Position numbers and translations under genes: made by a program. Under the pieces are notes generated by a model. That model was not told the DNA's origin, did no database searches, and saw nothing but the letters and a program-made list of their open reading frames with translations. A DNA stretch of 64,000 nt, taken from positions 6,781 through 70,780 of the forward strand of contig JBAQUS010000010.1 in assembly GCA_049297675.1 (NCBI GenBank), in the 5' to 3' direction. Shown here one piece after another: positions 847 to 33,561 of the stretch (position 1 is the stretch's first letter; every line of letters begins with the position of its first letter). This DNA comes from Minisyncoccia bacterium (GTDB taxonomy: Bacteria; Patescibacteriota; Minisyncoccia; Phycocordibacterales; DATDWN01).

Positions 847-950
847 GGCTTTTGTCTTTTGTAAATTCGAGTTATACTTTGTTAGGTTTAGTAATATAAA
901 AAACATGACACGGGGTTCACCCCTGCACTAAGTTTGCTCTAGCATTTTTG

Positions 951-986: not shown

Positions 987-1008
987 GTAACATTAAGTGA
1001 TTTTATTT

Positions 1009-1803: not shown

Positions 1804-1837
1804 AGGAGAAAGAAATTTTGTGTTATAATACGCCGAA

Positions 1838-4859: not shown

Positions 4860-4876
4860 TATAGACGCCTTATGAG

Positions 4877-4991
4877 TCCCGTTAGAAACCGCGGTCACGA
4901 AGTAGTATGATTAGTTATAAAAAGTATATGTTAGTCGAATATAAATTAACAAAATTACAGATTGCGATGATCGCGACCTGTTTCTAACGGG
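4877..4991. repeat. MITE-like palindromic element, family 1 copy a (terminal IR CCCGTTAGAAAC / GTTTCTAACGGG)
   Basis: Reads tcccgttagaaaccgcggtcacgaagt ... ttaacaaaattacagattgcgatgatcgcgacctgtttctaacggga, with perfect 12-bp terminal inverted repeats. It is near-identical at both ends to the copy at 13555-13670. The right terminus abuts the ATG of the downstream GT gene (ctaacggg-ATG). Confidence 0.65.
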
Positions 4992-5999: not shown

Positions 6000-6003
6000 A
6001 GGG

Positions 6004-7155: not shown

Positions 7156-7164
7156 AAAATTTCG

Positions 7165-7590
7165 ATGCATAAAAAAATATTTACTCTAGTTTTGGATGTT
7201 TTGGAGGAACACAAAATACTTAGATACATTATCTCTGGCGGTATGAGTGCTACGGTAAACATTTCTCTTTTCTCTCTATTTTTTTATATCTTTGATATTT
7301 ATTACATAATCTCAAACATTATGGCTTTTTCGGTAGCTTTTTTTGTCAGTTTGTTTTTACAAAAATTTTGGACATTTAGAGATCATTCAACAGAAAATAT
7401 GCACATTCAAGGGATGTATTATCTTCTCAACTCTCTTTTAGGTTTGGCAATAAACACCACAGTCCTTTATGTTTGTGTTGATTATTTGAAATTTATACCG
7501 ATTGTAGGAGTAATCATAGCTGGAATATGTACTGCTCTAGTAACATTTCAGATTTCTAGTAGATATGTGTTTAATAATAGCTTTAAATGA
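7165..7590 (+). CDS. GtrA-family small membrane protein (putative polyprenol-phosphate-sugar flippase)
   Basis: A 141-aa protein with four predicted TM segments. The N-terminal LRYIISGGMSATVNISLFSLF matches the GtrA-family pattern. Confidence 0.6.
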   Translation: MHKKIFTLVLDVLEEHKILRYIISGGMSATVNISLFSLFFYIFDIYYIISNIMAFSVAFFVSLFLQKFWTFRDHSTENMHIQGMYYLLNSLLGLAINTTVLYVCVDYLKFIPIVGVIIAGICTALVTFQISSRYVFNNSFK

Positions 7591-7622
7591 TTCCATAATT
7601 TTGACAGAAATGAGTGTGTATA

Positions 7623-7641
7623 ATGGTACCTGACACCATTT
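7623..7641 (+). repeat. REP-like palindromic sequence (AATGGTACCTGACACCAtt), copy 1
   Basis: One of four copies of the 17-18-bp motif AATGGTACCTGACACCA. It contains the TGGT...ACCA stem and a KpnI-type GGTACC core. It sits at the left edge of the RAYT-containing cassette. Confidence 0.6.
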
Positions 7642-7682
7642 CTCCCTTGGTGTTCCAGTTGATAAATTGCTAAAATAATAAT

Positions 7683-8699
7683 ATGAAAAATCTTGGACAG
7701 TTAACTCCTGCACATGAAAGTGTAGAGAAAAAAGAAAATGGTGTAGAAATTTCTGCTACGAAAGAATCGGCAGTCGTTTCATTTCGTAATCTTGAATTAA
7801 ATGAACAAAACCCCAGATCGCCAGAGATTAAAATTGTTGTTGAAAAACAACCTGTTGAATTAGTTGAGGGGAAAAGCTATGTCAATTCTGCGGTTTTAAT
7901 TGATAAAGAAACGGAAAGAATGCAGTCACTTGCAACTCAGGCGGAAGCACTTTTAGAAATACCAGAAAATGAGAGGCCAGCAAAAGTTTTAGAGATTTTG
8001 AGAAGCAAAATGCACTACGCATACAATGATGTTCTTGATAAACTTTCTGAAAGTGATCCTGATTTAGCAAAATGGGTTGCAGAAAATACTGGTCTTAGTT
8101 CTCCATTTTCCCATGATGTTCCTTTATCGGATCTTGTGGAGAAAGGCTATGGTGTATGTAGGCATTTGTCCGTTGCATATTTATGGTTGGCACAAAAGGC
8201 AGGATTGAAAGGCGTTTTGTTGAGTAGTGAGTATGGTTCAATAAAAAATATTGAAAGAACTGATACAAAACAAAAATTATTTAGATCGGCAGATATTGGT
8301 AAACCAGTTTCTGCTCATTCTTGGGTAGAAATAAAAACAAGTGACGGACAGTGGATTCCAGTTGATCCATCCACGAAACTTGTTGGTGATTCAGAAGAAG
8401 GGCTAGCCATGTTTAAAGAAGCAAATTATTTGGCTATTGGATATGGGATAGACATTGACGCGGAACCAGGAGATAAGTTGGGGGTTGATAGAACAGCAAT
8501 ATTTTTTGCTCCTGCAGAGCCAACATCTTCTGGAACGTTTTGTTTAGAACTTCGTAGTTCAAAACCCACTATCAGATTCGGAAAAGAAAATTTACCGCCT
8601 ACTAATGTCCCGTATTCAGGAGAAGGAAAATTGAAAATAGAAAAAGACGATAATTATGGAGGTTTTGCACTTGATATTTTGGAAGTTAAGGTAGAATAA
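7683..8699 (+). CDS. Transglutaminase-like cysteine-protease-superfamily protein
   Basis: Shows a Cys-His-Asp triad pattern: GYGVCRHLSVAYLW (Cys), SAHSWVEIKTSDGQWIPVDPS (His and Asp). Confidence 0.6.
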   Translation: MKNLGQLTPAHESVEKKENGVEISATKESAVVSFRNLELNEQNPRSPEIKIVVEKQPVELVEGKSYVNSAVLIDKETERMQSLATQAEALLEIPENERPAKVLEILRSKMHYAYNDVLDKLSESDPDLAKWVAENTGLSSPFSHDVPLSDLVEKGYGVCRHLSVAYLWLAQKAGLKGVLLSSEYGSIKNIERTDTKQKLFRSADIGKPVSAHSWVEIKTSDGQWIPVDPSTKLVGDSEEGLAMFKEANYLAIGYGIDIDAEPGDKLGVDRTAIFFAPAEPTSSGTFCLELRSSKPTIRFGKENLPPTNVPYSGEGKLKIEKDDNYGGFALDILEVKVE

Positions 8700-8740
8700 A
8701 AATTATTTTATCAATCCACAGTCTCCATGAAATTGGGAAA

Positions 8741-8758
8741 TTGGTGTCAGGTACCATT
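8741..8758 (-). repeat. REP-like palindromic sequence, copy 2 (inverted orientation)
   Basis: ttggtgtcaggtaccatt is the reverse complement of aatggtacctgacaccaa. It lies immediately upstream of the RAYT gene and is inverted relative to copy 3. Confidence 0.6.
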
Positions 8759-8786
8759 TTTTGTAATTACATGCTAGAGTCACTAA

Positions 8787-9449
8787 ATGTCACGAGTACC
8801 TAGAGTAGATATAGGAGATGAGATTTACCATGTTCTCAACAGAAGTAATGGTCGTGTAAAAATATTCAATAATGACAAAGACTACAAAAACTTTGTAGAT
8901 TTACTGATCGAGACAAAAGAGAAGTTTGATATGAGGATTCTTGCTTACTGTATAATGCCGAATCATTGGCATCTAGTTCTGTATCCAAAGAAAGACGGAG
9001 ATCTTTCAAAATTCATGCAATGGTTATCATTAACTCATACACAAAGATATCATGTTAAAACCGAGACTGTTGGATTTGGTCACCTGTACCAAGGAAGGTA
9101 TAAATCATTTTTAGTATCAAGAGACAACTATCTTCTCCAGGTTATTAGATATGTCGAACAAAATCCACTAAGGGCAAAAATTGTTAAAAGAGCTGAGGAT
9201 TGGAAGTGGGGAAGTGGGTTTAATAGATTTAATCCTTCAGAAAAAAACTTTGTTTCTGAATGTCCGATTGATCTACCAAACGATTATAGACAATGGTTAA
9301 ATGAGGTTCACGAAAAAGATGAATTAGAGAACATTAGACTGTCAGTAGAAAAGAGTAAACCATTTGGTACAATTAGTTGGGTAGATAAAATGGTCGAAAC
9401 TTTTAAATTGGGTTTAACCACAAGACTAAGAGGAAGACCCACGAAATAA
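8787..9449 (+). CDS. REP-associated tyrosine transposase (RAYT; IS200/IS605 TnpA-like HUH Y1 transposase)
   Basis: Has the HUH motif MPNHWHLVLYP and the C-terminal catalytic Tyr helix LLQVIRYVEQNPLRAKIV. It is about 220 aa, typical of the Y1_Tnp family. It is flanked by inverted REP copies at 8741-8758 and 9449-9467. Confidence 0.8.
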   Translation: MSRVPRVDIGDEIYHVLNRSNGRVKIFNNDKDYKNFVDLLIETKEKFDMRILAYCIMPNHWHLVLYPKKDGDLSKFMQWLSLTHTQRYHVKTETVGFGHLYQGRYKSFLVSRDNYLLQVIRYVEQNPLRAKIVKRAEDWKWGSGFNRFNPSEKNFVSECPIDLPNDYRQWLNEVHEKDELENIRLSVEKSKPFGTISWVDKMVETFKLGLTTRLRGRPTK

Positions 9450-11879: not shown

Positions 11880-11926
11880 AAAAGGGGTCCGAAAAGTGCA
11901 GGTGCTTAAGGCACCCTTTTCTTTTG
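11880..11926. terminator. Bidirectional rho-independent terminator between convergent genes
   Basis: aaaaggggtcc...ggtgcttaaggcaccctttt cttttg forms a stem (aaaaggg/ccctttt outer, ggtgc/gcacc inner). It is followed by a T-run on the + strand and preceded by an A-run (a T-run on the - strand). Confidence 0.5.
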
Positions 11927-12385
11927 CAAAAATTCTATTTTAGATTTTATGTCTTCTCTTTCTAGAAAATCAAAATAAAAGTTACTCAAATATTTAAATA
12001 ATGATGATGAAAATTTTCGATTTGGGAAAAGTATTTTTTTGAATTTATTTTTCTTTATCAAATAGTCAACTATCTTTATGTAGTCACCATCTCCAGATAC
12101 AAGTATTATTTTATCAAAATTCTTATTATCGATAAGGTTCTTCATAATTTCAAAAACTATATCAGTGTCAACATTTCCTTTCTTTGTTCCCATTAATGTT
12201 GAATCATGTTTTTTGAATGAAATAATAAATCCAGCTTTTTGAATATTATTATATAAATCTTGCTCAGTTTCTGAAACATAACCCAAGAAGTAATACGCCT
12301 CAGTAACCGAATATTTATCTCTCAGGTATGTTCTAAACTTAAAAAGATCTACCCTCCATTCATTTTGGATAGTTCCAAGATGCAA
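11906..12385 (-). CDS. NYN-domain (LabA/YacP-like) putative ribonuclease
   Basis: ILVSGDGDYIKIVDYLIKKNKFKKILFP is the characteristic NYN/DUF88 core. The called start is TTG. The conserved N-terminal motif (N-I-A-F-I-D-G-Q-N) is encoded in-frame immediately upstream (12386-12415), before any canonical start codon. Confidence 0.6.
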   Translation of the reverse strand: MHLGTIQNEWRVDLFKFRTYLRDKYSVTEAYYFLGYVSETEQDLYNNIQKAGFIISFKKHDSTLMGTKKGNVDTDIVFEIMKNLIDNKNFDKIILVSGDGDYIKIVDYLIKKNKFKKILFPNRKFSSSLFKYLSNFYFDFLEREDIKSKIEFLQKKRVP

Positions 12386-14653: not shown

Positions 14654-15556
14654 ATGGATAAAAAATGTTACATCTGCCAGAGTACAACATCTTTTTTTAT
14701 AAGTCAGCAAGGTTTTACTTTTAATAAATGCAAAAACTGCAGTTTGTTTTTTGTAGATCCAATGCCAACTGATCAGGAGTTATCACGAGTTTATTCTCCC
14801 ACAACAAACTACCAGTCCAATAAGATAAGAAAGGATTACAAAAAAGAGAAAAATCTAAAATTTATAAAGATTTTCGATAAGTTGAGAAAGTATGAACTGC
14901 CAAATCAGAAGGTTCTAGATGTCGGAGCTTCAGATGGGGAGTTTTTATATTATGCTAAAAATAATGGATTTGAACCCTTTGGAGTTGAACCAAACAAGAC
15001 CACAGCAGACTTGGCAAATAAAAATAACCTCAATGTTTTTAACGGCTTTTTATCAGATTGTAACTTTTCAAAAAACTCCTTTGGTTTATTAAGACTGGGA
15101 GACGTTTTAGAGCACTCAAATAATCCGCAAAAGCTTATTAATGAGTGTCAGTCCTTCCTGGTTTCAGGGGGGTTACTTGTTGTTTCAATACCAAACATGG
15201 ACTCAAATTGGGTTAGGAGTACTTATTTATTAAAAAAAATATTCAGCATACCCTGGTCAATTTTAGAGCCACCCCACCATTTGTTGTATTTTAGAGAAAA
15301 TAATTTGGATTTATTTATGGACAAGGAAGGTTTTAAGAAAATTACATCATGGTATGATAGACCACCAACCCTAAAATACGAGTTAGGCAACACTCACCTT
15401 TTCGGCAAATTTAATAAACAAAAAAATCTGACAAATTTTCTTCAGTTTTTTTTCGGTTTCTCACTATACACCATTCTCTATTCATTGGATTACATCATTA
15501 CACCTTTAAAGAAAAAAGATTATAGTATGGTTTGTATATACAAAAAAAATGCTTAA
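14654..15556 (+). CDS. Class I SAM-dependent methyltransferase with N-terminal Zn-ribbon (CxxC...CxxC)
   Basis: The Zn ribbon is CYICQ...CKNC. The SAM-binding motif I is VLDVGASDGEFLYYAKNNGFEPFGVE. Confidence 0.75.
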   Translation: MDKKCYICQSTTSFFISQQGFTFNKCKNCSLFFVDPMPTDQELSRVYSPTTNYQSNKIRKDYKKEKNLKFIKIFDKLRKYELPNQKVLDVGASDGEFLYYAKNNGFEPFGVEPNKTTADLANKNNLNVFNGFLSDCNFSKNSFGLLRLGDVLEHSNNPQKLINECQSFLVSGGLLVVSIPNMDSNWVRSTYLLKKIFSIPWSILEPPHHLLYFRENNLDLFMDKEGFKKITSWYDRPPTLKYELGNTHLFGKFNKQKNLTNFLQFFFGFSLYTILYSLDYIITPLKKKDYSMVCIYKKNA

Positions 15557-16592
15557 TATTTATATCCACAAAAAACTTGATAAATTGTCACACATCCCAC
15601 TACTGGACTATTATTTTGGTAGGAGCAATTTAGGAGTAGAAAGATATGGTGATCAAGCCATTGGTCTTTTAAATAAGCAGTTTTTTAATTTAGTAATGTC
15701 TCCAGAAGAAGCGGATTATTTTTTAATACCTCATAATTTCTTTTATATAAAAGACCAAAAGTATCTTGATGATTTTGTTGGTTTATCCAAAAAATACAAC
15801 AAAAAAATTATTATTTTTTCCTATGGCGATTCAGATAATGATATAAATATTCCAAACAGCATCATCTTTCGAAGTTCGCAATATGCTTATAAAGCCAGGA
15901 GAAACGAAATAATAATGCCAGCTATAGCTGATGATTTATCTATAGGATTAGATTTGAGACCTAGACAAAAATCTGAGAAACCAGTTGTTGGATTTTGTGG
16001 TTGGGCAGACTATCCGAATTTTTACAGAGCTATAATCGAAAATATTAAATCAACCGTAGTTAGTTTTAAAAGTGTGTTCATTGGGAACTATTATTACCAA
16101 AAAAGAGGGCTCATGTTTCGAATAGAGGCGATAAAACATCTAAGAAAATCAAATTTATTGCAAGCGAACTTTATTATTCGTGATACATTTTCAGGTAACG
16201 AAAAAACAAGAAAAATAGACCCAAAAGTGGCAAGAGAAGAATATATTAAAAATATCTTAGAATCTGACATGTCCTTGGCTGTTAAGGGAGATGGCAATTT
16301 CTCTATAAGATTTTATGAAATTTTGAGCTTAGGAAGAATCCCTATTCTGGTTGATACAAGTTGTCCTTTGCCACTAAAAGATATTGTTAAATATAGCGAT
16401 TTTTCTGTAAGAGTTGATTCAAAAAATCTCAGCAATCTATCTGAAACAATATTAAAATTTTATACAAATTTGTCTGAAGATCAGTTCATAATGATGCAAA
16501 AAAATGCTAAGATAACCTTTGACTCGTATTTGAGAATCGATCAATTTTTCTCATACACTTTCACAGCTGAATTTCTAAAAAAATTTGACTAG
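15549..16592 (+). CDS. Putative glycosyltransferase (exostosin-like / CgeB-like GT-B C-terminal domain)
   Basis: DYFLIPHNFFY and the C-terminal IRFYEILSLGRIPILVDTS resemble the exostosin/Glyco_trans_1_2 motif. Confidence 0.4.
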   Translation: MLNIYIHKKLDKLSHIPLLDYYFGRSNLGVERYGDQAIGLLNKQFFNLVMSPEEADYFLIPHNFFYIKDQKYLDDFVGLSKKYNKKIIIFSYGDSDNDINIPNSIIFRSSQYAYKARRNEIIMPAIADDLSIGLDLRPRQKSEKPVVGFCGWADYPNFYRAIIENIKSTVVSFKSVFIGNYYYQKRGLMFRIEAIKHLRKSNLLQANFIIRDTFSGNEKTRKIDPKVAREEYIKNILESDMSLAVKGDGNFSIRFYEILSLGRIPILVDTSCPLPLKDIVKYSDFSVRVDSKNLSNLSETILKFYTNLSEDQFIMMQKNAKITFDSYLRIDQFFSYTFTAEFLKKFD

Positions 16593-18015
16593 CTCTATGG
16601 TAAAACCGCTCAAAATTGCTCCAGTTGTTTTTCTCTTATTAGTCACTACTTTTTTCTCTATTTACAAACTTTCTGAAAGTCCAAGAACATGGATGGATGA
16701 GGGTATTATCACACAGGTTTCAAAAAATGTTGCTGAATATGGAAAGCATGCTTTGCAGGTGGCACCAGAGAGATTTGTTTCGGCAGGTATAGTCTCAACA
16801 GGTTTTCCTGTCACTTTTCCTATAGCGTTATCTTTCAAATTCTTTGGCACTGGTTTGCTTCAGGCTAGAATAGTTATGGTTATTTTTATACTGCTACTTA
16901 TTTCTACAGTATTTTTTTATTTAAAGAGACTTTATGGAATGAAAGTTGGATTTTGGGGAACTTTACTTGTGGCCACTTTTTCTCCACTTTATGGTAATGG
17001 TAAAAATGTATTAGGTGAAGTTCCAGGTCTCTTTTTCTTTTTTGCAATGCTTTTGTTTATTGACAAAGCTATTCATGACAAAGAGAAAATTAGTAATTAT
17101 ATTCTTGCTGGTTTGTTTACAGGCTTAGCATTTTCAACTAAATCAATTTTCATTCTACTATTACCAGCACTATTGGTAGCTAGTTTATGGCATTTTTATA
17201 GAGGAGGTATTAATTTTGACAAGTATTACTTGTATTCATTTATAAGTTTTATAGCTGTCTTTTTTCTGTGGATATACATTCAGTTCAGTAATGATTCAAT
17301 ATCTAAGATATTGCTTATTTATGCTAATCCTTATTACATATCTGTAATTGATTCAATAAAAAATAATTTACTGTTGTTTATAGGTAGACCTGAACCAATT
17401 TATTTTCTAGGGACATTACTAATTTGGATAGTTTCATATTTCTATCGTATCAAAAAGGCAGTACCAATTAATTTTTCAGAGTCCCTTGCTCTCATGTTCT
17501 CAATACTGATCTTTCTGGCATTTTTTAGAACTCCTGGTTATTTTAGATATTTCTTTCTAGCACAGTTTATAAGTCTTGTGTATTTACTACCCTCATTGAA
17601 CTCTTTATTTTCACATACCAAACTATCAAAATTTATTTTATGGGGTATAGGAATCCTTATTGTTTTTCATATTTATATGACATCATTCCATTCTTGGGTG
17701 GCAAGTCATTACAGAGGTACTAGATCCCATGATATATCGATTTTGGCGAATGAAATATCGGATGATGGCAAAATATTGTTTTACCAAGTTCCAGAATTTA
17801 TTATTTTTCTAAAAAACAACAATTATCATCAGTTTATAGATATTACAGCTCTCATAAAAGTTGGAGAAGAAAATAAAGCATTAGTTGAGAATGGTTATTT
17901 TGATAAAATAGTCATTAATGATTCAGTCTATGATAAAAATGACTCAATGTTTAAATATTATGGTAGAGTTGGGGGTCTTGACCACTATATAATTCTGAAA
18001 AAAAATAAATTATGA
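16585..18015 (+). CDS. GT-C fold membrane glycosyltransferase (ArnT/PMT-like)
   Basis: About 11 predicted TM helices. The first extracytoplasmic loop reads ESPRTWMDEGIITQVSKNV (acidic DE motif), as in the ArnT/PMT family. Confidence 0.5.
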   Translation: MTSSMVKPLKIAPVVFLLLVTTFFSIYKLSESPRTWMDEGIITQVSKNVAEYGKHALQVAPERFVSAGIVSTGFPVTFPIALSFKFFGTGLLQARIVMVIFILLLISTVFFYLKRLYGMKVGFWGTLLVATFSPLYGNGKNVLGEVPGLFFFFAMLLFIDKAIHDKEKISNYILAGLFTGLAFSTKSIFILLLPALLVASLWHFYRGGINFDKYYLYSFISFIAVFFLWIYIQFSNDSISKILLIYANPYYISVIDSIKNNLLLFIGRPEPIYFLGTLLIWIVSYFYRIKKAVPINFSESLALMFSILIFLAFFRTPGYFRYFFLAQFISLVYLLPSLNSLFSHTKLSKFILWGIGILIVFHIYMTSFHSWVASHYRGTRSHDISILANEISDDGKILFYQVPEFIIFLKNNNYHQFIDITALIKVGEENKALVENGYFDKIVINDSVYDKNDSMFKYYGRVGGLDHYIILKKNKL

Positions 18016-19118
18016 AAATAGTCTATATAGCTTCCGTGAGGTTACCCACTGAGAAAGCTCATGGTGTTCAGATAATGAAAACCTGCGAAGCATTAGCTAA
18101 ATCAGGAATAAAAACATCTTTGTTTGTTCCGAATTATTCTAGTACAAATGATATAAAAGAAGACGCCTTTCTTTACTATGGAGTCAGAAAATTGTTTACC
18201 ATTAAGAAACTCTTTGGAATAAGGCTTATTCGTTTAGGTGCCCTTGGATTTTTTTCTGAGAGTTTAATATTTTTTATCTCGGTCATTTTTTCTTCTGATT
18301 TTTGGAAAGCCGACTACATATACAGTCGAGATGAGATGATCGTGGTTCTTTCAAGTCTTCTAGGCAGAAAATCTATTTGGGAGACTCACACTGGGAGCTA
18401 TAACTATTTTGCAAAAATAGCCTTGAAAAAGGCTTACTTAATAGTTGCAATTTCACAAGGTTTAAAAGACTTTTATGTAGAAAAAGGAACTAATAGTAAT
18501 AAGGTGGTAGTGGCTCATGACAGTGTTGATTTGGACGAGTTCAAAGTCTCTAAAACTAAAAACGAATTAAGGGAAAAATTCGGGTTACCACAAGACAAAA
18601 AAATAATTCTATATGTTGGTAGACTGGATGGATGGAAAGGAATAAAAGTTTTTCTTGATGCAACTAAATATTTCAACGATTTGCAAGTAGCACTAATAAT
18701 AGGAGGAGACAATGATCAAATAAATAATCTATCAAAGGATTACAAAAATGTTATTTTTTGGGGTTATAGGCCATACAAGGATTTACCAATGTATCAAAAA
18801 TTAGCTGATGTATTAGTTGTACCAAATACAGGCAAGAGCGAAGTATCAAAATTTTTTACTTCACCTCTTAAAGTTTTTGCTTATATGGCTTCTGGAGTTT
18901 CTATTGTTGCATCAGATTTACCCTCTATACGAGAGATATTAAATGAAGATAATTCAATACTGGTAGAGCCTGATAATCCTAAAGCTTTCGCGGACGCCAT
19001 TAATATGATTCTAGGGGATGAAGGAAGAGCAAGAATGATAAGAGAGCAGGCACTCAGAGATGTTAGAATGTATACATGGGATGAAAGAGTGAAAAATATT
19101 CTTTCTTCATTAAAATAG
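18012..19118 (+). CDS. Glycosyltransferase family 1 (GT4-type)
   Basis: The N-terminal EKAHGVQIMKTCEALAKSGI is the GT4 N-domain motif. The C-terminal region carries an E..A.G.P-type GT1 motif. Confidence 0.7.
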   Translation: MKIVYIASVRLPTEKAHGVQIMKTCEALAKSGIKTSLFVPNYSSTNDIKEDAFLYYGVRKLFTIKKLFGIRLIRLGALGFFSESLIFFISVIFSSDFWKADYIYSRDEMIVVLSSLLGRKSIWETHTGSYNYFAKIALKKAYLIVAISQGLKDFYVEKGTNSNKVVVAHDSVDLDEFKVSKTKNELREKFGLPQDKKIILYVGRLDGWKGIKVFLDATKYFNDLQVALIIGGDNDQINNLSKDYKNVIFWGYRPYKDLPMYQKLADVLVVPNTGKSEVSKFFTSPLKVFAYMASGVSIVASDLPSIREILNEDNSILVEPDNPKAFADAINMILGDEGRARMIREQALRDVRMYTWDERVKNILSSLK

Positions 19119-19823
19119 ATGAAAAATGTAGTCATTATTCCAACATATAATGAGAAGGAAAATATTGAGGTTATTATTCCTCTAATTTATAAATTATATC
19201 CGGAAATATATGTTTGTGTTGTTGATGACAATTCTCCTGATGGGACTGCAGGTTCAGTTAATTTATTAAAGAAACAATATGTGAATTTAAGTTTGATTTT
19301 ACGAAAAGGGAAAGAAGGTCTAGCAAAAGCATACATACATGCTTTCAAGGAGGTACTTAAAGACAATGACGTTGAAACAATAATAATGATGGATGCCGAT
19401 CTTTCTCATGATCCAAAGCATATAGGTGAAATGATTGAGCTTAGAAAAAAATATGATGTGATAGTTGGTTCTAGGTATATAAAAGGCGGAAGAACTGAGG
19501 GCTGGGAATTTTATAGAAGATTATTGAGTCGTTTAGGTAATATTTATGCCAAACTAATCACACAGATGCCTGTCAACGAGTGCACTGGAGGGTTTAACGC
19601 AATTAATGCTAATATACTAAGAAAGATAAACCTAGATGAGATTAATATGTCAGGTTACGCTTTCATAATGTATTTTAAGTATGTACTGTATAAAAATGGA
19701 GCAAAGTTTTTTGAGATTCCAATATGTTTCAAGAACAGAGTAGAAGGTGTCTCAAAGCTATCAAATATGATTATTCGCGAAGGGATACTTGCTCCATGGG
19801 AAATGATTTTTTCAAAGAAATAA
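19119..19823 (+). CDS. Polyprenol-phosphate sugar synthase (DPM1-like GT2, soluble)
   Basis: Motifs VIIPTYNEKENIE, VVDDNSPDGT and DADLSHDP form a DxD-type GT2 catalytic core typical of dolichol/undecaprenol-phosphate mannose or glucose synthases. Confidence 0.75.
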   Translation: MKNVVIIPTYNEKENIEVIIPLIYKLYPEIYVCVVDDNSPDGTAGSVNLLKKQYVNLSLILRKGKEGLAKAYIHAFKEVLKDNDVETIIMMDADLSHDPKHIGEMIELRKKYDVIVGSRYIKGGRTEGWEFYRRLLSRLGNIYAKLITQMPVNECTGGFNAINANILRKINLDEINMSGYAFIMYFKYVLYKNGAKFFEIPICFKNRVEGVSKLSNMIIREGILAPWEMIFSKK

Positions 19824-19875: not shown

Positions 19876-20823
19876 ATGAAAATTTCTGTTGTTACACCCA
19901 TATACAATGAAGCCAAAAATATACCCATTTTACTTAAAGAGTTGAAGGATGTTCTAGTTAATATTAGTGATGATTATGAGATTATTACTATTGATGATGG
20001 TTCAAGGGATAATTCATTTGATGTATTATCAAATATTGCACAAAGTGATATTCACATTAAGGTAATAAATTTCAGAGTAAATAATGGTCAAACTGCAGCA
20101 ATATCTGCTGGAATTGAGCACGCAACTGGTGATCTAATTATCCCAATAGATAGTGATTTGGAAAATGATCCAAAGGATATTCCAAAATTGTTGTTAAAAA
20201 TAAATGAAGGTTTTGATGTTGTTTCTGGTTGGCGAAAAAATAGATGGAAGGACAAACTTTTGACAAGAAAATTACCATCAATGTGTGCTAATTGGATTAT
20301 ATCAAAGATTACGAGATTGAAGCTTCATGATTATGGTTGTACTTTGAAAGTTTACAAGAGGGAAGTAATAGAATATACAAATCTCTATGGTGAGATGCAC
20401 AGATTTATCCCAGCCTATGCATACTGGAGAGGGGCAAAAGTTACTGAGGTTATCATCAATCATAGATCCAGAATTCATGGTGAAAGTAATTATGGATTCA
20501 ATAGACTTTTCAAAGTTTTGCTGGACTTGATTGTAATAAAATTTCTAGAAAAATATATGAACAAGCCGATACATTTTTTCGGAGGACTCGGTTTTATATT
20601 ATTTGGTTTCGGTATATTTTTTGGCCTAACTTCTATAATTCTAAAAATTATCCAACTGAGAGATTTTGTCTCGACACCACTCCCTGTATTTTCCGCCTTC
20701 CTTTTAGTTGTAGGTATTCAACTTATTGTCATGGGAATTATTGCTGAAATACTGATGAGGACATATTACGAATCTCAAGGTAAGAAGTCATATATTATTA
20801 AGGATAAGATAAATTTGAAATAA
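19876..20823 (+). CDS. GtrB-like GT2 polyprenol-phosphate sugar synthase with C-terminal TM helices
   Basis: GT2 motifs ISVVTPIYNE, IDDGSRD and DSDLENDP are present. Two C-terminal hydrophobic helices follow, as in GtrB/ArnC. Confidence 0.75.
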   Translation: MKISVVTPIYNEAKNIPILLKELKDVLVNISDDYEIITIDDGSRDNSFDVLSNIAQSDIHIKVINFRVNNGQTAAISAGIEHATGDLIIPIDSDLENDPKDIPKLLLKINEGFDVVSGWRKNRWKDKLLTRKLPSMCANWIISKITRLKLHDYGCTLKVYKREVIEYTNLYGEMHRFIPAYAYWRGAKVTEVIINHRSRIHGESNYGFNRLFKVLLDLIVIKFLEKYMNKPIHFFGGLGFILFGFGIFFGLTSIILKIIQLRDFVSTPLPVFSAFLLVVGIQLIVMGIIAEILMRTYYESQGKKSYIIKDKINLK

Positions 20824-20824
20824 A

Positions 20825-22684
20825 ATGTGTGGTATAGCAGGTTTCGTTGGTCAAGGTGATGTATCAGACCTAGAAAAGATGACAGCATCCCTATCTAACA
20901 GAGGTCCTGATGATAGCGGTTTGTTTTGTGAAGACGGGGTTGGTTTGGGACACACAAGGCTAAGTATTATAGATCTAAGTCCTACTGGGCATCAACCAAT
21001 GTTTTCCAGTGATAAAAAAGTTGGCATCGTTTTTAATGGTGAGATGTATAATTACTTAGAATTGAAGGAAGAATTACGAAGTCAGAATTACAATTTTAAA
21101 TCTACTTCGGATACTGAAGTCATAATTGCTTTGTACATAAAGTATGGTGAGAAGTGTTTCGAAAAGATGAATGGTATGTTTGCCTTAGCTATTTATGATT
21201 TTGAGAAAGGGAAATTGATTCTCGCTCGAGACAGGCTAGGCAAAAAGCCTCTCTATTGGGCAATATTTGATAACACTTTAATTTTCGGTTCGGAACTCAA
21301 GTCTCTTCTTAAACACCCTTCATTTGTTAAAGAGATGGATCCAGAATCCCTGGAGTTATATCTTCAGCTGGATTATGTTCCCACACCGAAAACAATTTAC
21401 AAAAATGTTTTTAAGCTCGAACCAGCAAGTTTTCTTAAATTTCAAAACGGACAATATGAAGTAAAAAAGTTTTGGGAGTTGGGGGCAAAAGAAGAAGAAA
21501 AAATCTCACTAAGTGATGCCATGAAAAAACTTCATAGAGAGTTACAAGTTGCTGTAAAATCAAGAATGATCTCTGATGTTCCACTCGGTGTCTTTCTAAG
21601 CGGTGGCCTGGATAGTTCTACTGTAGCTTATTATGCTAAGAATGCTTATAAAAACGATATTCACACATTCTCAATTGGATTTAAGGAAAAAAGTTTTGAT
21701 GAGTCAAAATACGCTATTAAAGTGGCAAAATATCTTGGTACTACTCACCATCACAAAATTGTCTCGGCCAGGGACTGTTTTGAGACACTGGACGAAATAG
21801 TTGAAATTTTTGATGAACCAGTAGCCGATGCCTCTGTCATCCCAACATATCTTTTATCAAAATTTGCCAAAGAAAGCGTAACTGTAGCTATAGGTGGAGA
21901 CGGTGGGGATGAGTTGTTTGCAGGTTATCCAACTTTTCAAGCAGATAAATACCACAAAACTTATTTAAATCTACCTTCTGTGGTTAAGAAGCTAATTTCC
22001 GTAGTAATAAGTTTAATTCCGGCAACAGACAATAATTTTGGGTTGAAATTTAAACTCCAAAAATTTATTGAGGGTATTGATAAAGATAGGTTTATGAGTC
22101 ATCAAAACTGGTTAGGGACATTTTCCAGGTCTGACTTAGAAAGTTTGCTTAGGTCAAAGACTGGGAAAAATTTGGTAAAAGATTACTTGGGAAATGTATT
22201 AAGTGAGACAAAAATAAAAGATGAGGATAATAAATTACTTTACTCATACATGAGAACTTACATGATGGATGAAGTTTTGGTAAAGGTTGATAGAGCTAGT
22301 ATGTTTGCATCTCTTGAAACCAGATCACCCTTTCTCGATTATAGATTGGTAGAATTTGTATTTAGTCTACCATACTCCTTTAAACTGTATGGTTTTAAGA
22401 CAAAATTTATTCTAAAAATGCTTATGTCAACAAAATTGCCAAGATCGATTGTTTGGAGAAAAAAGAAAGGATTTGGAATACCGCTTACAAAGTGGCTAAA
22501 AGGGGACCTAAAAGAGTTTTGTCTCAGTTTGCTTTCCAAAGAAAATATTTTAAAGCAAGGTATATTTGATTATGAATTTATAGAAAAAACCTTAAATGAA
22601 CACTTTTCAAACAAACAAGACAATCGTAAAAAAATATGGAATTTGATGGTTTTTCAGATGTGGTATAGGAGGTATATGAAATAG
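20825..22684 (+). CDS. asnB: Asparagine synthetase, glutamine-hydrolysing (class II amidotransferase)
   Basis: The N-terminal MCGIAGFVG places the catalytic Cys at position 2. The PP-loop SGGLDSS marks the synthetase domain. Confidence 0.9.
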   Translation: MCGIAGFVGQGDVSDLEKMTASLSNRGPDDSGLFCEDGVGLGHTRLSIIDLSPTGHQPMFSSDKKVGIVFNGEMYNYLELKEELRSQNYNFKSTSDTEVIIALYIKYGEKCFEKMNGMFALAIYDFEKGKLILARDRLGKKPLYWAIFDNTLIFGSELKSLLKHPSFVKEMDPESLELYLQLDYVPTPKTIYKNVFKLEPASFLKFQNGQYEVKKFWELGAKEEEKISLSDAMKKLHRELQVAVKSRMISDVPLGVFLSGGLDSSTVAYYAKNAYKNDIHTFSIGFKEKSFDESKYAIKVAKYLGTTHHHKIVSARDCFETLDEIVEIFDEPVADASVIPTYLLSKFAKESVTVAIGGDGGDELFAGYPTFQADKYHKTYLNLPSVVKKLISVVISLIPATDNNFGLKFKLQKFIEGIDKDRFMSHQNWLGTFSRSDLESLLRSKTGKNLVKDYLGNVLSETKIKDEDNKLLYSYMRTYMMDEVLVKVDRASMFASLETRSPFLDYRLVEFVFSLPYSFKLYGFKTKFILKMLMSTKLPRSIVWRKKKGFGIPLTKWLKGDLKEFCLSLLSKENILKQGIFDYEFIEKTLNEHFSNKQDNRKKIWNLMVFQMWYRRYMK

Positions 22685-22802
22685 TTTTATTGTTTATCCA
22701 CAACTAACCATAATAAATCAATTTACACAATTTTAGTGATAATATATAATTGAAAGTAGAAAATATCACCTTTCCGTTATATATTATAAATAATACAATT
22801 TT

Positions 22803-23390
22803 ATGTCTACCGACAACCTTATTGCTAAGTTATATGAATCCACGAAAACAATTCTAACCATAAAGGACATAGCTTTAATTTGGGGGGAAACTAACACCGT
22901 CAGTCTTATCTCAAAGATCAAATACTATGCTAAACAAGGGTCGCTCAACCGCCTGACTCGTGGTGTGTTTGCAAAAAATAATGGGTATGATGTTAAAGAA
23001 TTAGCGACTAGCATCTATACCCCATCATATATAAGTTTTGAAACAGTCCTAAGAGAAGCCGGGATTATTTTTCAGCATCAGACTGCTATCTTTGTAGCCG
23101 GTCCATATCCAACTACAAAAAAGATTGGTGATAAAACAATTACATTTAGAAAATTAAAAGACAGTATTCTCTACAGTGCAGTTGGTGTGAAAAATGAAAA
23201 AAATTACAGCATTGCTACACCGGAGCGAGCATTTCTAGATACAATTTATTTATCTCCTAAATTATATTTTGACAATCTCCAATCCATTAACTGGGAGACA
23301 TGTTTTGAAATCGTGAAAATTTACGATAATAAACAACTAATAAAACGCCTAAAAAAATATCAGACTAACTACCAAAAACATGCTCAATAA
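22803..23390 (+). CDS. AbiEi-family antitoxin (type IV TA system)
   Basis: RLTRGVFAKN and PSYISFETVLREAGII match the AbiEi_4 pattern (rGvY ... SYiSlesAL). It overlaps the downstream toxin gene by 11 nt. Confidence 0.65.
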   Translation: MSTDNLIAKLYESTKTILTIKDIALIWGETNTVSLISKIKYYAKQGSLNRLTRGVFAKNNGYDVKELATSIYTPSYISFETVLREAGIIFQHQTAIFVAGPYPTTKKIGDKTITFRKLKDSILYSAVGVKNEKNYSIATPERAFLDTIYLSPKLYFDNLQSINWETCFEIVKIYDNKQLIKRLKKYQTNYQKHAQ

Positions 23391-24093
23391 AGAAAAACAC
23401 CAGCTTATCATGGGACAGATTCTCCGAGACATTTACTCGGATACTTCCATTTCTTCCCTTATCGGATTCAAGGGCGGTACCTGTGCCTACTTTTTCTATG
23501 GACTGACTCGTTTCTCTGTTGATTTAGACTTTGATCTCTTCTCTACCGATGAAGCCACACAAAAATTGGTGTACGAAAGAATCCAGAGGCTATTAGGAAA
23601 ATACGGAGAGGTTAAAGATAACTATATAAAACGTAACACCATCTTCTTCCTGATATCCTATGGTGATGCGGACCACAATATCAAAGTTGAAGTGAATGTC
23701 AGAATCCTTGTGCCGGATATTAGAAAACATTATGAAGTGATGAAATATCTTGGAATTTCCATGTTGGTTGGAAAAAAAGATTATATCTTTGCCAGTAAGC
23801 TTACTGCTCTGACAAGTCGAAGCGAAACAGCCATGCGTGATATTTATGACATCTGGTTTTTTGGCATCAATCATTGGGACATCAATGCCGAGGTGATCAA
23901 AGCTCGAACTGGCAAGACTATTAAAGAATATATAGCTGATTGTATTCCTGTTGTTGAAGTGGTTAAAGATAATGAAATCTTGAGAGGTCTGGCAGAGTTA
24001 TTGACTGATGAAAAAGAAAAGATGTGGGTTAAAACACATCTGCGAAAGGAGGTTATCTTCCTGCTTAAGAACTATCAGTCAATATTAAAATAA
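23380..24093 (+). CDS. AbiEii/AbiGii-family nucleotidyltransferase toxin (DUF1814)
   Basis: FKGGTCAYFFYGLTRFSVDLDFDL carries the GG[ST]...D.D nucleotidyltransferase motif of AbiEii toxins. Confidence 0.7.
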   Translation: MLNKEKHQLIMGQILRDIYSDTSISSLIGFKGGTCAYFFYGLTRFSVDLDFDLFSTDEATQKLVYERIQRLLGKYGEVKDNYIKRNTIFFLISYGDADHNIKVEVNVRILVPDIRKHYEVMKYLGISMLVGKKDYIFASKLTALTSRSETAMRDIYDIWFFGINHWDINAEVIKARTGKTIKEYIADCIPVVEVVKDNEILRGLAELLTDEKEKMWVKTHLRKEVIFLLKNYQSILK

Positions 24094-24110
24094 AATTTAT
24101 GATTCACAAA

Positions 24111-24198
24111 ATGACCACTTTTCAAGCCGAGAAGATAATCGTAAAAAAATCTGGAATCTAGTGGTTTTTCAGATGTGGTATGATAGATATATGAAATA
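24111..24198 (+). pseudogene. Diverged duplicate of the asnB 3' end (remnant fragment)
   Basis: About 88 nt with roughly 85% identity to 22597-22684. It would encode ...NRKKIWNLVVFQMWYDRYMK*, against the asnB C-terminus ...NRKKIWNLMVFQMWYRRYMK*. Confidence 0.7.
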
Positions 24199-24230
24199 AC
24201 TTTTATTATTAATAATAAATTTAAACCTTA

Positions 24231-25712
24231 ATGAAAAAAATAACTAATGTATTTATGTCGATCATTTTGTCTGTTTTGGTGGCAATTCCATTCAATGTTT
24301 TTGCCTTTACTTCTGAGTGTACTGGTGGAACTATTACTAATGTCGGAGCAAATACAGTTCACACTTTTACATCGAGCGGAACTTTTGAATGTTCTAGTGC
24401 AGGAACAGGAAATGTAGATTATTTGGTTGTTGCAGGCGGTGGTGGAGGTGGTGGAGCAAACAGTGCTGGTGGTGGCGGTGCTGGTGGTGTGAGGATGGGT
24501 ACTTCACTCTCATTCTCGGGCAGTTCATCTGTAACAGTTGGTTCTGGAGGTACAGGTGGGGCTGACACTGGGGTAACTGGATCGAATGGTTCTGACTCGG
24601 TGTGGAATAGTATAATCTCAATTGGTGGCAGTGGAGGTGGTGGCAATACTGCCCCCTCAAACGCTGGGACTAATGGTGGTTCAGGCGGTGGAAATGCTGG
24701 ATTTGGTACTGGACTTGCTGGATCGGGAATAGTTGGTCAAGGTAATGATGGGGGTGTTGGTGCAGATAATCCTTTTCCTTCTGGTGGGGGTGGTGGAGCA
24801 GGTTCAACTGGACAAGCTGGGACGGGTTTTCAATCAGGGTCTGGAGGAGCTGGCATAGTTAGTTCAATTTCTGGTTCTGCTATTTACTATGGAGGCGGAG
24901 GTGGTGGAGGCTCTAGCTCACAAGGATCATTATATGGACTCGGTGGTATAGGTGGTGGTGGAAATGGAGGAGAATTGGGGAATCCAACGTTAGGTGTTGC
25001 CAATACTGGAGGGGGAGGTGGTGGTTCGGGTAGTGCTAACACTGTTGGAGCGTCAGGCGGTTCGGGTATTGTAATACTGAGTTATGTAACCCCGGTCTAT
25101 CTTCCACCAATAACTGGAACTGGAATAAATAATAGATTAGCAAAATTTTCATCAGCCACCACAATAACTAACTCCTTACTTTCCGATGATGGACTAAACA
25201 TATCTCTTACCTCTGGTAACTTATTTATCTCGAACGGTTCTTTATTTTCACAATTTATTAGTTTATTAGCTGACGGTTTGGGTTTAGATACTGATACTCC
25301 CAGACTTCTCTCTATTGGCTCTACAACCGCAACTTCAATAAATATTGGTAGGGCAAATGTTACAACTACAATATTTGGTACAACAAAAATATCAAATATT
25401 GGTACTGTCTCAAATTGTGTTTCAACAATCACTCCTGCTGTATGTGGTTCTGCTCCATCTGGAAGTGTAGCAATGTCAACTGGAGGTAGTACTTTAATAG
25501 TGAATACAACAGCAGTGACATCAGATAGTCAGATATTTGTAATAGAAGATGCATCACTTGGTGCAAGACTAGGTATTACTTGTAGTGGTGCAGGGGCAAA
25601 TAGAAGTTTTAGTATTAGTGCTAGAACGGCTAATACTAGTTACACTATTAAATCTAGTGGTAATATAACTGGTGCTAACAAAGCTTGTTTGAGTTATTTT
25701 ATAGTGAACTAA
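24231..25712 (+). CDS. Secreted glycine-rich domain protein (Gly_rich-like) with conserved C-terminal Ser/Thr-rich domain; paralog A
   Basis: A signal peptide (MKKITNVFMSIILSVLVAIPFNVFA) is followed by VDYLVVAGGGGGGG and long GGxGG tracts, then GSGIVILSY. The C-terminal roughly 190 aa are about 75-80% identical to the paralog at 52750-54213. Both end in CLSYFIVN. Confidence 0.75.
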   Translation: MKKITNVFMSIILSVLVAIPFNVFAFTSECTGGTITNVGANTVHTFTSSGTFECSSAGTGNVDYLVVAGGGGGGGANSAGGGGAGGVRMGTSLSFSGSSSVTVGSGGTGGADTGVTGSNGSDSVWNSIISIGGSGGGGNTAPSNAGTNGGSGGGNAGFGTGLAGSGIVGQGNDGGVGADNPFPSGGGGGAGSTGQAGTGFQSGSGGAGIVSSISGSAIYYGGGGGGGSSSQGSLYGLGGIGGGGNGGELGNPTLGVANTGGGGGGSGSANTVGASGGSGIVILSYVTPVYLPPITGTGINNRLAKFSSATTITNSLLSDDGLNISLTSGNLFISNGSLFSQFISLLADGLGLDTDTPRLLSIGSTTATSINIGRANVTTTIFGTTKISNIGTVSNCVSTITPAVCGSAPSGSVAMSTGGSTLIVNTTAVTSDSQIFVIEDASLGARLGITCSGAGANRSFSISARTANTSYTIKSSGNITGANKACLSYFIVN

Positions 25713-25757
25713 ACTTTGATTAAAAAACAGATTTTTTATAGCTAACAATTCAGTGCA

Positions 25758-26582
25758 TTGAAAGATATGTCTAATGATGATAAAACAGCACAAGCCTTTG
25801 CCACTTCATGGAATAATTTACCTAAAGGATCAATTTACACTGCGGACCAGTTCGTTGATTGGATGACTCCAATTACAAAAGGAGATGTAAAAAATAAAAG
25901 AGTGCTTGAGCTCGGTTGTGGTAATGCTAGTCTCATGGTTCATATATTGAATTGGGGACCATCCTATCTTGAGGGTGTTGATTTGGGTGATTCTGTTCTA
26001 TCGGCAGAAGAAAACTTATTAAGCAAGAAAAATTGGAAAATTGTTAAAGCTGATCTTACACAATATCGAAGTGAGGGTTTTGATGTGGTTTATTGCATTG
26101 GGGTAATACATCATTTAAAAAGTCCCAAGTCAGGATTTGATTCTGTGATTAAAAATACAGAAAAAGGAGGGAAATTTCATGTCTGGGTATATGCTAAAGA
26201 GGGAAACGGGATAATAATATATATTGTTGATCCAATTAGAAAAGTTGCTTCGGCACTACCGTGGTGGATTATAAAATATTTTATTGCCACTCCTCTCGTT
26301 ACACCATTCTTTTTTTATGCTAATATTGTTAGGATTTTTAAAAATGTTGGTTTTGTAAAGAGATTGCCTCTTTATGAATATAGTCAGTGGATTTCAAAAA
26401 GAGAATATAGTTTTTTTAGACATGTTGCTTTCGATCAGCTGGTTACACCACAGACTACATATATAACACGAAGCACAATTGAAAGTTGGCTTGTCTCTAA
26501 CGATAGAATTGATAAAAATACTACTTATGTAATATTAAGAAATGGTAACTCTTGGAAATTTGGTGGAAGTTTAAAGTTGTAG
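25758..26582 (+). CDS. Class I SAM-dependent methyltransferase
   Basis: Motif I is VLELGCGNASLMVHIL, followed by VDLGDSV. Confidence 0.7.
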   Translation: MKDMSNDDKTAQAFATSWNNLPKGSIYTADQFVDWMTPITKGDVKNKRVLELGCGNASLMVHILNWGPSYLEGVDLGDSVLSAEENLLSKKNWKIVKADLTQYRSEGFDVVYCIGVIHHLKSPKSGFDSVIKNTEKGGKFHVWVYAKEGNGIIIYIVDPIRKVASALPWWIIKYFIATPLVTPFFFYANIVRIFKNVGFVKRLPLYEYSQWISKREYSFFRHVAFDQLVTPQTTYITRSTIESWLVSNDRIDKNTTYVILRNGNSWKFGGSLKL

Positions 26583-26635
26583 TGTTTCGTTTGACATAAT
26601 ATATTTTTCTGTTAATACTTAGCTGTATAAATTAA

Positions 26636-27565: not shown

Positions 27566-27569
27566 AATT

Positions 27570-28259: not shown

Positions 28260-28287
28260 GTTGAAAAAATGGCTGACATGACCTATA

Positions 28288-31131: not shown

Positions 31132-31132
31132 A

Positions 31133-32260: not shown

Positions 32261-32261
32261 T

Positions 32262-33539: not shown

Positions 33540-33561
33540 AGTGCTATGATGTCTAAAATAT

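Follow-up and report, generated by a model that had tools for sequence, protein, structure and literature searches.

The window examined in this study, a stretch of 64,000 nt from contig JBAQUS010000010.1 of a Minisyncoccia bacterium, probably holds a cell-surface glycan island in which about five multi-component transmembrane glycosylation modules, of the GtrABC, CsbB-GtcA-YfhO or ArnC-ArnT type, operate in parallel. Five large, polytopic and strongly hydrophobic proteins, here called A (16585), B (35523), C (37441), D (46159) and E (49519), are the putative GT-C glycosyltransferases of these modules. A first-pass annotation of the DNA had placed five such proteins at these positions, and all five open reading frames (ORFs) were verified there, among about 35 genes; the interval it gave for the whole cluster, 16585-18015, is that of A only. 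When essentially all ORFs of the window were scanned against Pfam and NCBIfam, a glycan island emerged, with about 40 of about 52 genes apparently devoted to glycan synthesis. They include eight GT4 enzymes, five GT2s, one GT47-like enzyme, at least five S-adenosylmethionine (SAM) methyltransferases, one AsnB-type amidotransferase, about 14 sugar-nucleotide enzymes, one GtrA, one Wzx flippase and one Wzy_C protein with TPR repeats. The G+C content is about 33%, and nearly every gene lies on the plus strand. The Minisyncoccia are a class within the phylum Minisyncoccota, formerly known as the candidate phyla radiation (CPR) or Patescibacteria. The presence of these genes, their family and fold assignments, the conservation of motifs, the gene fusions and the synteny described below are direct observations.

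A conserved array of GT-C proteins and their putative partners

Gene context is the strongest functional evidence. The array can be followed gene by gene, at identities of 35-77%, in metagenome-assembled genomes (MAGs) of Zambryskibacteria (L005), Vogelbacteria (L006) and Paceibacterota (L004), as well as in a contig from an aquifer metagenome (L002). Its first part reads [13670]-methyltransferase-GT47-like-A-GT4-GT2-[GT2]-B-[GT2]-C-(E-GT2), and the second part, following (E-GT2), reads GtrB(42090)-split transketolase-epimerase-methyltransferase-D-GT4-GT4. The content of GT-C genes varies, since E is absent from L005 and L006, and D was not seen in L002. As at least four other Paceibacterota contigs share this set in synteny, the concentration of GT-C genes, described as unusual by the first-pass annotation, exceeds chance and is a conserved trait of the lineage rather than a peculiarity of this genome.

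Small GT2 enzymes accompany the GT-C proteins in these relatives. The triplet formed by A, a GT4 and the short GT2 19119 is kept in L002, L005 and L006, with the GT2 being 52-77% identical, and 19119 is the putative polyprenol-phosphate-sugar synthase partner of A. Similarly, L002 and L004 have a stand-alone 255-aa GT2 directly after the E orthologue, 66-68% identical to the N-terminal domain of the fusion protein 50942, and this domain is the putative partner of E. In four proteins of the C family (P0006, P0007, P0009 and P0011) a 240-aa DPM1/ALG5-like GT2 is fused to the N-terminus, while in L002 and L004 a separate GT2 of 247-249 aa directly precedes C. Orthologues of B are directly preceded by a GT2 of 241-247 aa in L005 and L006, and in another contig, L001, the GT2 and B are separated by a methyltransferase. 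Six of 40 sampled D homologues also carry an N-terminal GT2 domain. The partner GT2s in relatives best match PgfS, ArnC, PpgS, AglJ and dolichyl-phosphate-hexose transferases, all at scores below cutoff. Such fusions and adjacencies lend support to the polyprenol-phosphate-monosaccharide logic proposed by the first-pass annotation.

No significant pair was found by BLASTP among the five polytopic proteins, so they are not recent paralogues, and their kinship is visible only at the level of profiles. The profile-profile probabilities given by hhalign were 96-97% for B and C, 94% for C and D, 90% for A and C, and 79-83% for B and D. Each of the five has a conserved acidic motif where its first extracytoplasmic loop begins (for B, the loop after the fourth transmembrane (TM) helix), the loop in which the first-pass annotation had suggested looking for DxD or DE motifs. 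The motifs WWD and WWDxG were searched for in all five and are absent, which argues that none of them is an oligosaccharyltransferase of the STT3/PglB type.

The first-pass annotation had left two of the five without a family, but direct searches leave four of them (B, C, D and E) below the family threshold. Only A scores clearly with Pfam PMT_2 (PF13231; E 4.1e-13, 50.3 bits, gathering cutoff 26.1), and its family profile has a single match in the PDB, ArnT (5ezm, E 0.039). After TM1 it carries the motif W-M-D-E-G, invariant in four orthologues, and the order methyltransferase-GT47-like-A upstream is kept in L005 and L006. In a separate observation, the L005 contig (Zambryskibacteria RIFOXYD1_FULL_40_13, positions 1405-3906) has the orthologue of the GT47-like gene 15549 fused in frame to a PMT_2 GT-C, giving a protein of 833 aa that joins a cytoplasmic GT-B-like domain to a GT-C.

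The assignment of D as YfhO-like, already made in the first-pass annotation, is sustained through its homologues. A search of the representative library returned 5759 relatives at E <= 1e-3, and 34 of 40 sampled full-length homologues (21-61% identity) match Pfam YfhO (PF09586; best E 2.5e-33), making D a divergent YfhO by transitivity. The motif after TM1 is SGD (D-G-D in the consensus of the family), and ECxxC occurs in a large extracytoplasmic domain at the C-terminus; conserved pairs of cysteines are found in the C-terminal domains of both C and D. E had been called PMT/ArnT-like and is indeed a borderline PMT_2 protein: an orthologue from L004, 34% identical, reaches 26.5 bits against the cutoff of 26.1, and the L002 orthologue has no match. 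E also matches weakly the NCBIfam model for the putative glycosyltransferases LA_3751/3752 (E 7e-4), and carries an invariant G-D-x-P-D-Y after TM1. Other PDB matches returned by sequence or profile searches of B to E (calcineurin, TMEM260 and a ribosomal protein, E >= 0.0015) covered short stretches and were dismissed as chance.

The orphan families of B and C

Neither B nor C has a match in Pfam (E <= 10), NCBIfam or, by sequence, the PDB. For C, an AlphaFold2 model built from 20 relatives reached a predicted local distance difference test score (pLDDT) of 90.1 and a predicted TM-score (pTM) of 0.90. In this model 11 TM helices are followed by an extracytoplasmic C-terminal domain of 155 aa, in which CGSFGC is invariant. 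All of the top 23 Foldseek matches in the PDB are GT-C proteins, the best being PglB (6gxc, E 1.6e-6, TM-score 0.50), and the significant ones comprise PglB, STT3, DPY19, AftA, ArnT, AftD and Pmt4; transporters were given probabilities below 0.1. The sequence Y-D-E-[DE] at residues 50-53 follows TM1, with E52 invariant in 19 of 19 sequences covering it, and the other invariant residues are K112, R176-P-x-N-P and N346-Q-Q / Q347...H359. The order of helices in the model puts all of these in extracytoplasmic loops, and K4 and R10 at the N-terminus fit a topology with the N-terminus inside. Scanning genomes with a 10-sequence alignment of the C family gave three loci. C is most likely an enzyme of GT-C fold, and the fusions to and adjacency of small GT2s suggest a lipid-phosphate-linked donor.

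B is much rarer, with relatives in only four clusters out of 5.8 billion and about 10 known overall. Orthologues in L002/L003, L005 and L006 were found by synteny, and an iterated search with a three-sequence profile added one further protein only. NCBI annotations of MAGs differ in the start of B, giving either 650 aa (35523) or 561 aa (35790). The longer form, with a GTG start, is supported by the alignment of relatives from residue 1 and by the conservation of the first 89 residues, which hold three TM helices. Compared by hhalign, the B and C families scored 96.3%, and when enlarged 97.0% over 356 columns (B128-553 against C55-440), so that by profile B appears to be distantly homologous to C. 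In L002 the orthologue matches DUF2298 weakly (E 0.0027). A conserved loop contains invariant D125 and H128, followed by GNFPxxDP...YHYG; it follows TM4 and not TM1, there being about three additional TM helices ahead of the helix that enters the loop. It lacks Lys and Arg, the loops preceding it (27-31 and 84-100) are positively charged, and this distribution of charge places the D125 loop on the extracytoplasmic side. All of the top eight PDB matches found by Foldseek with the B model are GT-C proteins at probability 1.0, and transporters score at most 0.2.

It could be argued that B is not an enzyme but a transporter or scaffold that co-occurs with C, given its poor model, the lack of any family match and its three unusual extra N-terminal TM helices. 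We regard this as very unlikely in view of the profile match to the C family, which spans the TM core, the invariant acidic, histidine and aromatic residues of a loop free of Lys and Arg between positively charged cytoplasmic loops, the much higher Foldseek scores for GT-C folds than for transporters, and the small GT2 neighbouring B in relatives. Grouping with transporters, named by the first-pass annotation as the outcome that would speak against it, was found for neither protein; Foldseek and profiles group both with GT-C, as it had proposed in calling them possibly novel. Fold and profile evidence led us to reject a transporter reading, which for C is practically ruled out and for B is improbable.

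Donor supply and the proposed route

Of the synthase genes listed by the first-pass annotation, the DPM1-like and three GtrB-like genes are all present, as is the GtrA-like gene, but the total of synthase-like GT2 domains is five and not four, since that of the 50942 fusion had been omitted, along with the Wzy_C-TPR protein 57753 and the Wzx flippase 56301. The three longer GT2s (19876, 26636 and 42090) each have two C-terminal TM helices near residues 225-292. The protein of gene 7165 (141 aa, about four hydrophobic segments) is the sole GtrA in the window and a candidate flippase for polyprenol-phosphate-sugars.

Lipid-phosphate-monosaccharide donors, the pairing of synthases with GT-C proteins, the role of the flippase and the nature of the acceptors are what we infer from this gene set, and the route could run as follows. 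Cytoplasmic nucleotide sugars would come from the heptose pathway (27570-35503) and from the transketolase, epimerase and RmlD-like set (39282-44152). The five GT2s (19119, 19876, 26636, 42090 and the N-terminal domain of 50942) would place single sugars on polyprenol phosphate, several methyltransferases probably adding O-methyl groups, and GtrA, possibly aided by Wzx, would flip the products. A to E would then transfer the sugars at the outer face of the membrane, by means of the acidic residue that starts the first extracytoplasmic loop. The acceptor may be a secreted protein or a glycan, lipid- or wall-linked, assembled by GT4, GT2 and GT47 enzymes encoded in the island; candidates are a Wzx/Wzy-type glycan, the Ser/Thr-rich Gly_rich_2 paralogues (24231 and 52750) and the pilin (997). 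In known multi-component systems a GT-A synthase makes a polyprenol-phosphate-sugar, a GtrA-type or other flippase translocates it, and a GT-C hands the sugar on to an acceptor outside the cytoplasm (PMC8035078, PMC11127046). Several GT-A/GT-C pairs are served by each GtrA-type flippase in Lactococcus lactis and Bacillus subtilis, and the three pairs with one flippase of L. lactis (PMC8035078) are a direct precedent that makes it plausible for one GtrA to serve several pairs here.

The source of sugars for B and C invites a more specific proposal. The cassette between 27570 and 35503 encodes an HddC-like nucleotidyltransferase, an HddA-like kinase (NCBIfam, E 1.2e-44), a short-chain dehydrogenase/reductase (SDR), a glucose-fructose oxidoreductase (GFO) type enzyme, an epimerase/dehydratase, a UDP-Glc/GDP-Man dehydrogenase, GmhA (E 8.6e-28), a HAD phosphatase and a transaldolase. 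With the HddC-like, HddA-like, GmhA, phosphatase and transaldolase genes, the nucleotide-heptose pathway in the window is complete. It belongs to a 15.7-kb block (19876-35503) that lies between the GT2 19119 and B, replacing the small GT2s that accompany B and C in relatives, and that also includes two GtrB-type synthases, AsnB, the AbiEi/AbiEii pair, a Gly-rich secreted protein and a methyltransferase. An orthologous heptose cassette surrounds a C-family GT-C in an unrelated contig, L009 (ENA ERZ27280021 k141_867542, 1-9414), with identities of 46% for the SDR, 37% for the GFO enzyme, 58% for the epimerase, 71% for GmhA, 46% for the HAD phosphatase and 68% for the transaldolase. Interleaved with these are a methyltransferase, the GT-C itself (27% identical to C), an HddC-like nucleotidyltransferase (43%) and a 26636-type GtrB (43%), and the operon-like array ends with orthologues of 27570 and 26636, an arrangement suggestive of a three-component module specific for heptose. 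After the B-C pair, L001 has two genes of the heptosyltransferase family GT9 and a GtrA. Taken together, the contexts in L009 and L001 suggest a lipid-phosphate-heptose donor for enzymes of the B and C types. It could tentatively be speculated that 26636-39219 forms a three-component system in which 26636 loads a (possibly modified) glycero-manno-heptose onto polyprenol phosphate and B and/or C transfer it outside. A search of the literature found no description of a lipid-phosphate-heptose donor used with a GT-C, nor of the B and C families. As a general ancestral partner of B and C the heptose cassette was rejected, for L005 and L006 pair B and C with small GT2s and have no heptose genes.

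The second supply module (39282-44152, including the GT2 42090) is syntenic in L002, L004, L005 and L006 at 49-76% identity. Its split transketolase would fit a two-carbon transfer, dependent on thiamine pyrophosphate, onto a nucleotide keto-sugar, giving a branched or extended sugar. Across the window and these contigs, the module also carries RmlD-like or NTP-transferase genes.

Several observations weigh against parallel modules as the explanation. The scores of all GT2s fall far below the curated equivalog cutoffs of NCBIfam, those for ArnC (529 bits) and PgfS (500 bits) being reached by none of 19876, 26636 and 42090, so that the term polyprenol-phosphate-sugar synthase is to be read at the level of families. 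Glycan assembly in the cytoplasm also employs generic GT2s. The small GT2 that adjoins the orthologues of B and C is missing beside these two genes in the window, which makes their source of donor uncertain, and the best structural matches of C are oligosaccharyltransferases, which use diphosphate-linked donors. The model of B is poor (pLDDT 56, from an alignment of four sequences), and its fold match is therefore taken only as supportive. D has no match in Pfam, even at E <= 10, or in NCBIfam; E stays under the PMT_2 cutoff (19.1 bits, E 1.6e-3), and its family profile, made from three sequences only, found nothing in the PDB or among the other four GT-C families. Finally, no initiating phosphoglycosyltransferase was found in the window by the Pfam and NCBIfam scans.

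This last result could be turned towards a different reading, that the GT-Cs act in sequence and build an extracytoplasmic polymer from polyprenol-phosphate-monosaccharides, in the style of the mycobacterial Emb, Aft and Mpt enzymes for arabinan and mannan. Four to five distinct GT-Cs whose order is conserved in Paceibacterota, each accompanied by a donor synthase of its own, would fit such a scheme, as would the structural matches of C and B to AftA and AftD. We nevertheless consider it rather unlikely, because the GT4 set, the GT47-like enzyme, Wzx and Wzy_C are a standard kit for assembly in the cytoplasm followed by flipping, and because a GT-C content that differs between genomes is what one expects of variable decorations. 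Another issue is raised by PglB and STT3, which head the structural matches for both C and B; C and B could be similar to oligosaccharyltransferases, or to ligases or polymerases, and use polyprenol-diphosphate-oligosaccharides, for which a Wzx flippase is at hand, the more so as neither gene adjoins a small GT2 in this window. The GT2 fusions and the missing WWDxG make such donors less likely, GT2s fused to or preceding C, and preceding B, being a hallmark of phosphate-monosaccharide systems. The TM-scores to oligosaccharyltransferases are about 0.5, and those for DPY19, AftA and ArnT, which use phosphate-linked monosaccharides, are nearly equal. Overall, diphosphate-linked donors seem quite unlikely.

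It is possible, although we do not favour it, that some or all of the GT-Cs glycosylate proteins, in the way of PMT, PgfM1, TMEM260 or DPY19-like enzymes, with secreted Ser/Thr-rich proteins or pilins as their targets. A and E resemble PMT_2, the best match of 42090 is PgfS, which acts as synthase in streptococcal protein O-glycosylation, the models of C and B match DPY19 as well as oligosaccharyltransferases, and the window supplies both Ser/Thr-rich secreted paralogues and a type IV pilin. Gram-positive members of PMT_2, however, act mostly on teichoic acids and wall polysaccharides (PMC8035078), and the Gly-rich proteins are missing from the syntenic clusters L002-L006.

Other genes, related systems and significance

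Features of the window discussed in the text, with coordinates and the families or evidence on which each assignment rests
Feature	Coordinates	Strand	Basis and remarks
GtrA-like small membrane protein	7165-7590	+	Pfam GtrA_DPMS_TM, E 1.8e-20, 73.7 bits (cutoff 26.1)
SAM methyltransferase	14654-15556	+	Pfam; conserved upstream partner of A
GT47/exostosin-like glycosyltransferase	15549-16592	+	Pfam; conserved upstream partner of A
GT-C A	16585-18015	+	PMT_2-family polytopic glycosyltransferase, 476 aa
GT4	18012-19118	+	Pfam; directly after A
Short GT2, DPM1/PpgS/AglJ-like	19119-19823	+	234 aa, no TM helix; NCBIfam best: AglJ, PpgS, ArnC
GtrB/ArnC-type GT2	19876-20823	+	NCBIfam ArnC, E 1.1e-58, 198.7 bits, full length; TM helices 238-256, 271-289
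GtrB/ArnC-type GT2	26636-27565	+	NCBIfam ArnC, E 1e-54, 185.7 bits, full length; first heptose-cassette gene
Nucleotide-heptose/NDP-sugar (nucleoside diphosphate sugar) cassette	27570-35503	+	Pfam, NCBIfam
GT-C B	35523-37475	+	Orphan polytopic protein, 650 aa; ~15 TM helices and a C-terminal soluble domain
GT-C C	37441-39219	+	592 aa; ATG inside ORF 37381-39219; no family match
RmlD-like reductase	39282-40232	-	Pfam
Split transketolase (N and C halves, separate genes)	40229-41981	-	Pfam
GtrB/PgfS-type GT2	42090-43052	+	NCBIfam PgfS, E 1.3e-68, 231.5 bits, full length
Epimerase/dehydratase	43208-44152	-	Pfam
SAM methyltransferase	45215-46156	+	Pfam Methyltransf_23, E 4e-23; directly upstream of D; 65%-identical L006 orthologue
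GT-C D	46159-48459	+	Divergent YfhO-family protein, 766 aa
GT4 between D and E	48441-49529	+	Pfam Glycos_transf_1, E 2.2e-27; orthologue after D in L006
GT-C E	49519-50994	+	PMT_2-like polytopic protein, 491 aa; ATG inside ORF 49447-50994
Fusion: short PpgS/AglJ-like GT2, one TM helix, SAM methyltransferase	50942-52567	+	Pfam, NCBIfam
Wzx/MOP-type polysaccharide flippase	56301-57569	-	Pfam Polysacc_synt, E 1.4e-22
Wzy_C (O-antigen ligase/polymerase family) polytopic protein with C-terminal TPR	57753-59999	+	Pfam Wzy_C, E 9.6e-21

The Wzy_C protein is not a GT-C and is a candidate ligase, polymerase or O-oligosaccharyltransferase, and the GT2-methyltransferase fusion 50942 might methylate a lipid-linked sugar. 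At the upstream edge of the island are a DUF4015 glycosyl-hydrolase-like gene truncated by the start of the window (1-843), a type IV pilin (997-1464) whose N-terminus bears a methylation motif and a VirD4/TraG-like coupling ATPase (1838-3661). Within it lie an IS200-type Y1 transposase (8787-9449), a NYN-domain gene on the minus strand (11906-12385) and an AbiEi-like/AbiEii toxin-antitoxin pair (22803-24093), which fit a mosaic locus prone to exchange. The secreted paralogues at 24231-25712 and 52750-54213 have an N-terminal signal or anchor (MKKIT...), Pfam Gly_rich_2 matches and a near-identical, Ser/Thr-rich C-terminal half, the latter copy with a weak match to K1-lyase_C. Both are in locally GC-rich patches and are not part of the syntenic clusters in L002-L006; they could serve as glycoprotein acceptors or form surface fibres. 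Another GC-rich patch (0.43) carries a semiSWEET gene (MtN3/PQ-loop, E 1.8e-11; 44216-44524) overlapping a weak NUDIX ORF (44427-45098), so that a non-coding element or insertion in the gap 44152-45215 was ruled out; minus-strand ORFs listed in the patch (44216-45098) look spurious. At the other end, an ORF of more than 939 aa (61183-64000) runs past the window, with a weak HTH_17 near its start, one TM segment and a repetitive body rich in Ser, Thr and Asn, and is probably a giant surface protein. No RNA family was detected when the window was scanned with Rfam. Two of the ORFs are identical to the NCBI proteins MFZ2569286.1 and MFZ2522332.1, both labelled 'hypothetical protein' and assigned to 'Minisyncoccia bacterium' MAGs.

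The closest parallels to the island are found in Gram-positive bacteria, namely the CsbB/GtcA/YfhO and GtlA/GtcA/GtlB systems and CsdAB/CsdCD/CsdEF with CflA of L. lactis (PMC8035078). These likewise combine a GT2 synthase, a GtrA-type flippase and a polytopic GT-C, which may be of YfhO, PMT_2 or no Pfam type; they have several pairs per GtrA, and their modified DxD is extracytoplasmic. They differ in having two to three pairs scattered over 2-4 Mb (three genome-wide in B. subtilis; PMC8035078), compared with five GT-Cs within 34 kb of a CPR genome in the 1-Mb class, two of them from families with no Pfam or NCBIfam model. Their acceptors, teichoic acids and rhamnan, are not known from this lineage. 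The two-TM GT2s 19876, 26636 and 42090, the GtrA and the ArnT-like A also recall the GtrA/GtrB/Gtr* systems of Shigella and Salmonella O-antigen and ArnC/ArnT of lipid A, but the scores in the island are far below equivalog, the window has no pathway for lipopolysaccharide or lipid A, and the sugars are probably heptose-derived, transketolase-modified and methylated. With the streptococcal PgfS/PgfM1 pair (bioRxiv 10.1101/2024.05.05.592596), a GtrB-type synthase and a GT-C acting on Ser/Thr-rich extracytoplasmic regions, the link is 42090, which is nearest to PgfS over its full length but under the PgfS cutoff; no PgfM1 orthologue was identified.

Members of the GT-C superfamily have 7-13 TM helices (PMC11127046) and a DxD or modified acidic motif in the loop after TM1 (PMC8035078). 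The model of C superposes on the solved GT-C(A) enzymes (PglB/STT3, DPY19, AftA, ArnT, AftD and Pmt) with Foldseek probability 1.0 and TM-scores of 0.43-0.52, sharing TM1, a long first extracytoplasmic loop with two short helices and the acidic residue, a multi-TM core and a C-terminal domain. It differs from them in its identity of 9-14%, 11 rather than 13 TM helices, the absence of WWDxG and its own motifs RPxNP, NQQ...QQHHYH and CGSFGC, and B in its extra helices before the catalytic loop. The GT136 pentofuranose system (Kelly et al. 2024, PMC11127046) is similar in that a GT-C without sequence relatives was recognised by predicted fold and context, and in having a special lipid-phosphate-sugar from a dedicated cassette. 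It uses a synthase dependent on phosphoribosyl pyrophosphate and a MATE flippase, whereas the present island has GT2/GtrB-type and GtrA-type proteins and a nucleotide-heptose cassette.

Judged from these comparisons, the mechanism looks to be of a known, conventional kind repeated about five times, with B and C, hypothetical proteins in NCBI, representing two GT-C families absent from curated libraries. The value of the finding thus lies in cataloguing and in the biology of CPR bacteria, and not in new principles. If characterised, B and C would found new CAZy GT-C families, as GT136 did, and the recurrent association with a heptose cassette provides a concrete hypothesis for the donor; should that hypothesis be true, it would bring a lipid-phosphate-heptose donor together with two founding GT-C families. 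CPR bacteria have tiny cells that are generally thought to be attached to host cells, and their surfaces, in consequence, probably mediate attachment. To our knowledge, almost nothing has been learned about the glycans of CPR envelopes, and the island described here represents a large share of genes given to glycan synthesis for a genome of this size class.

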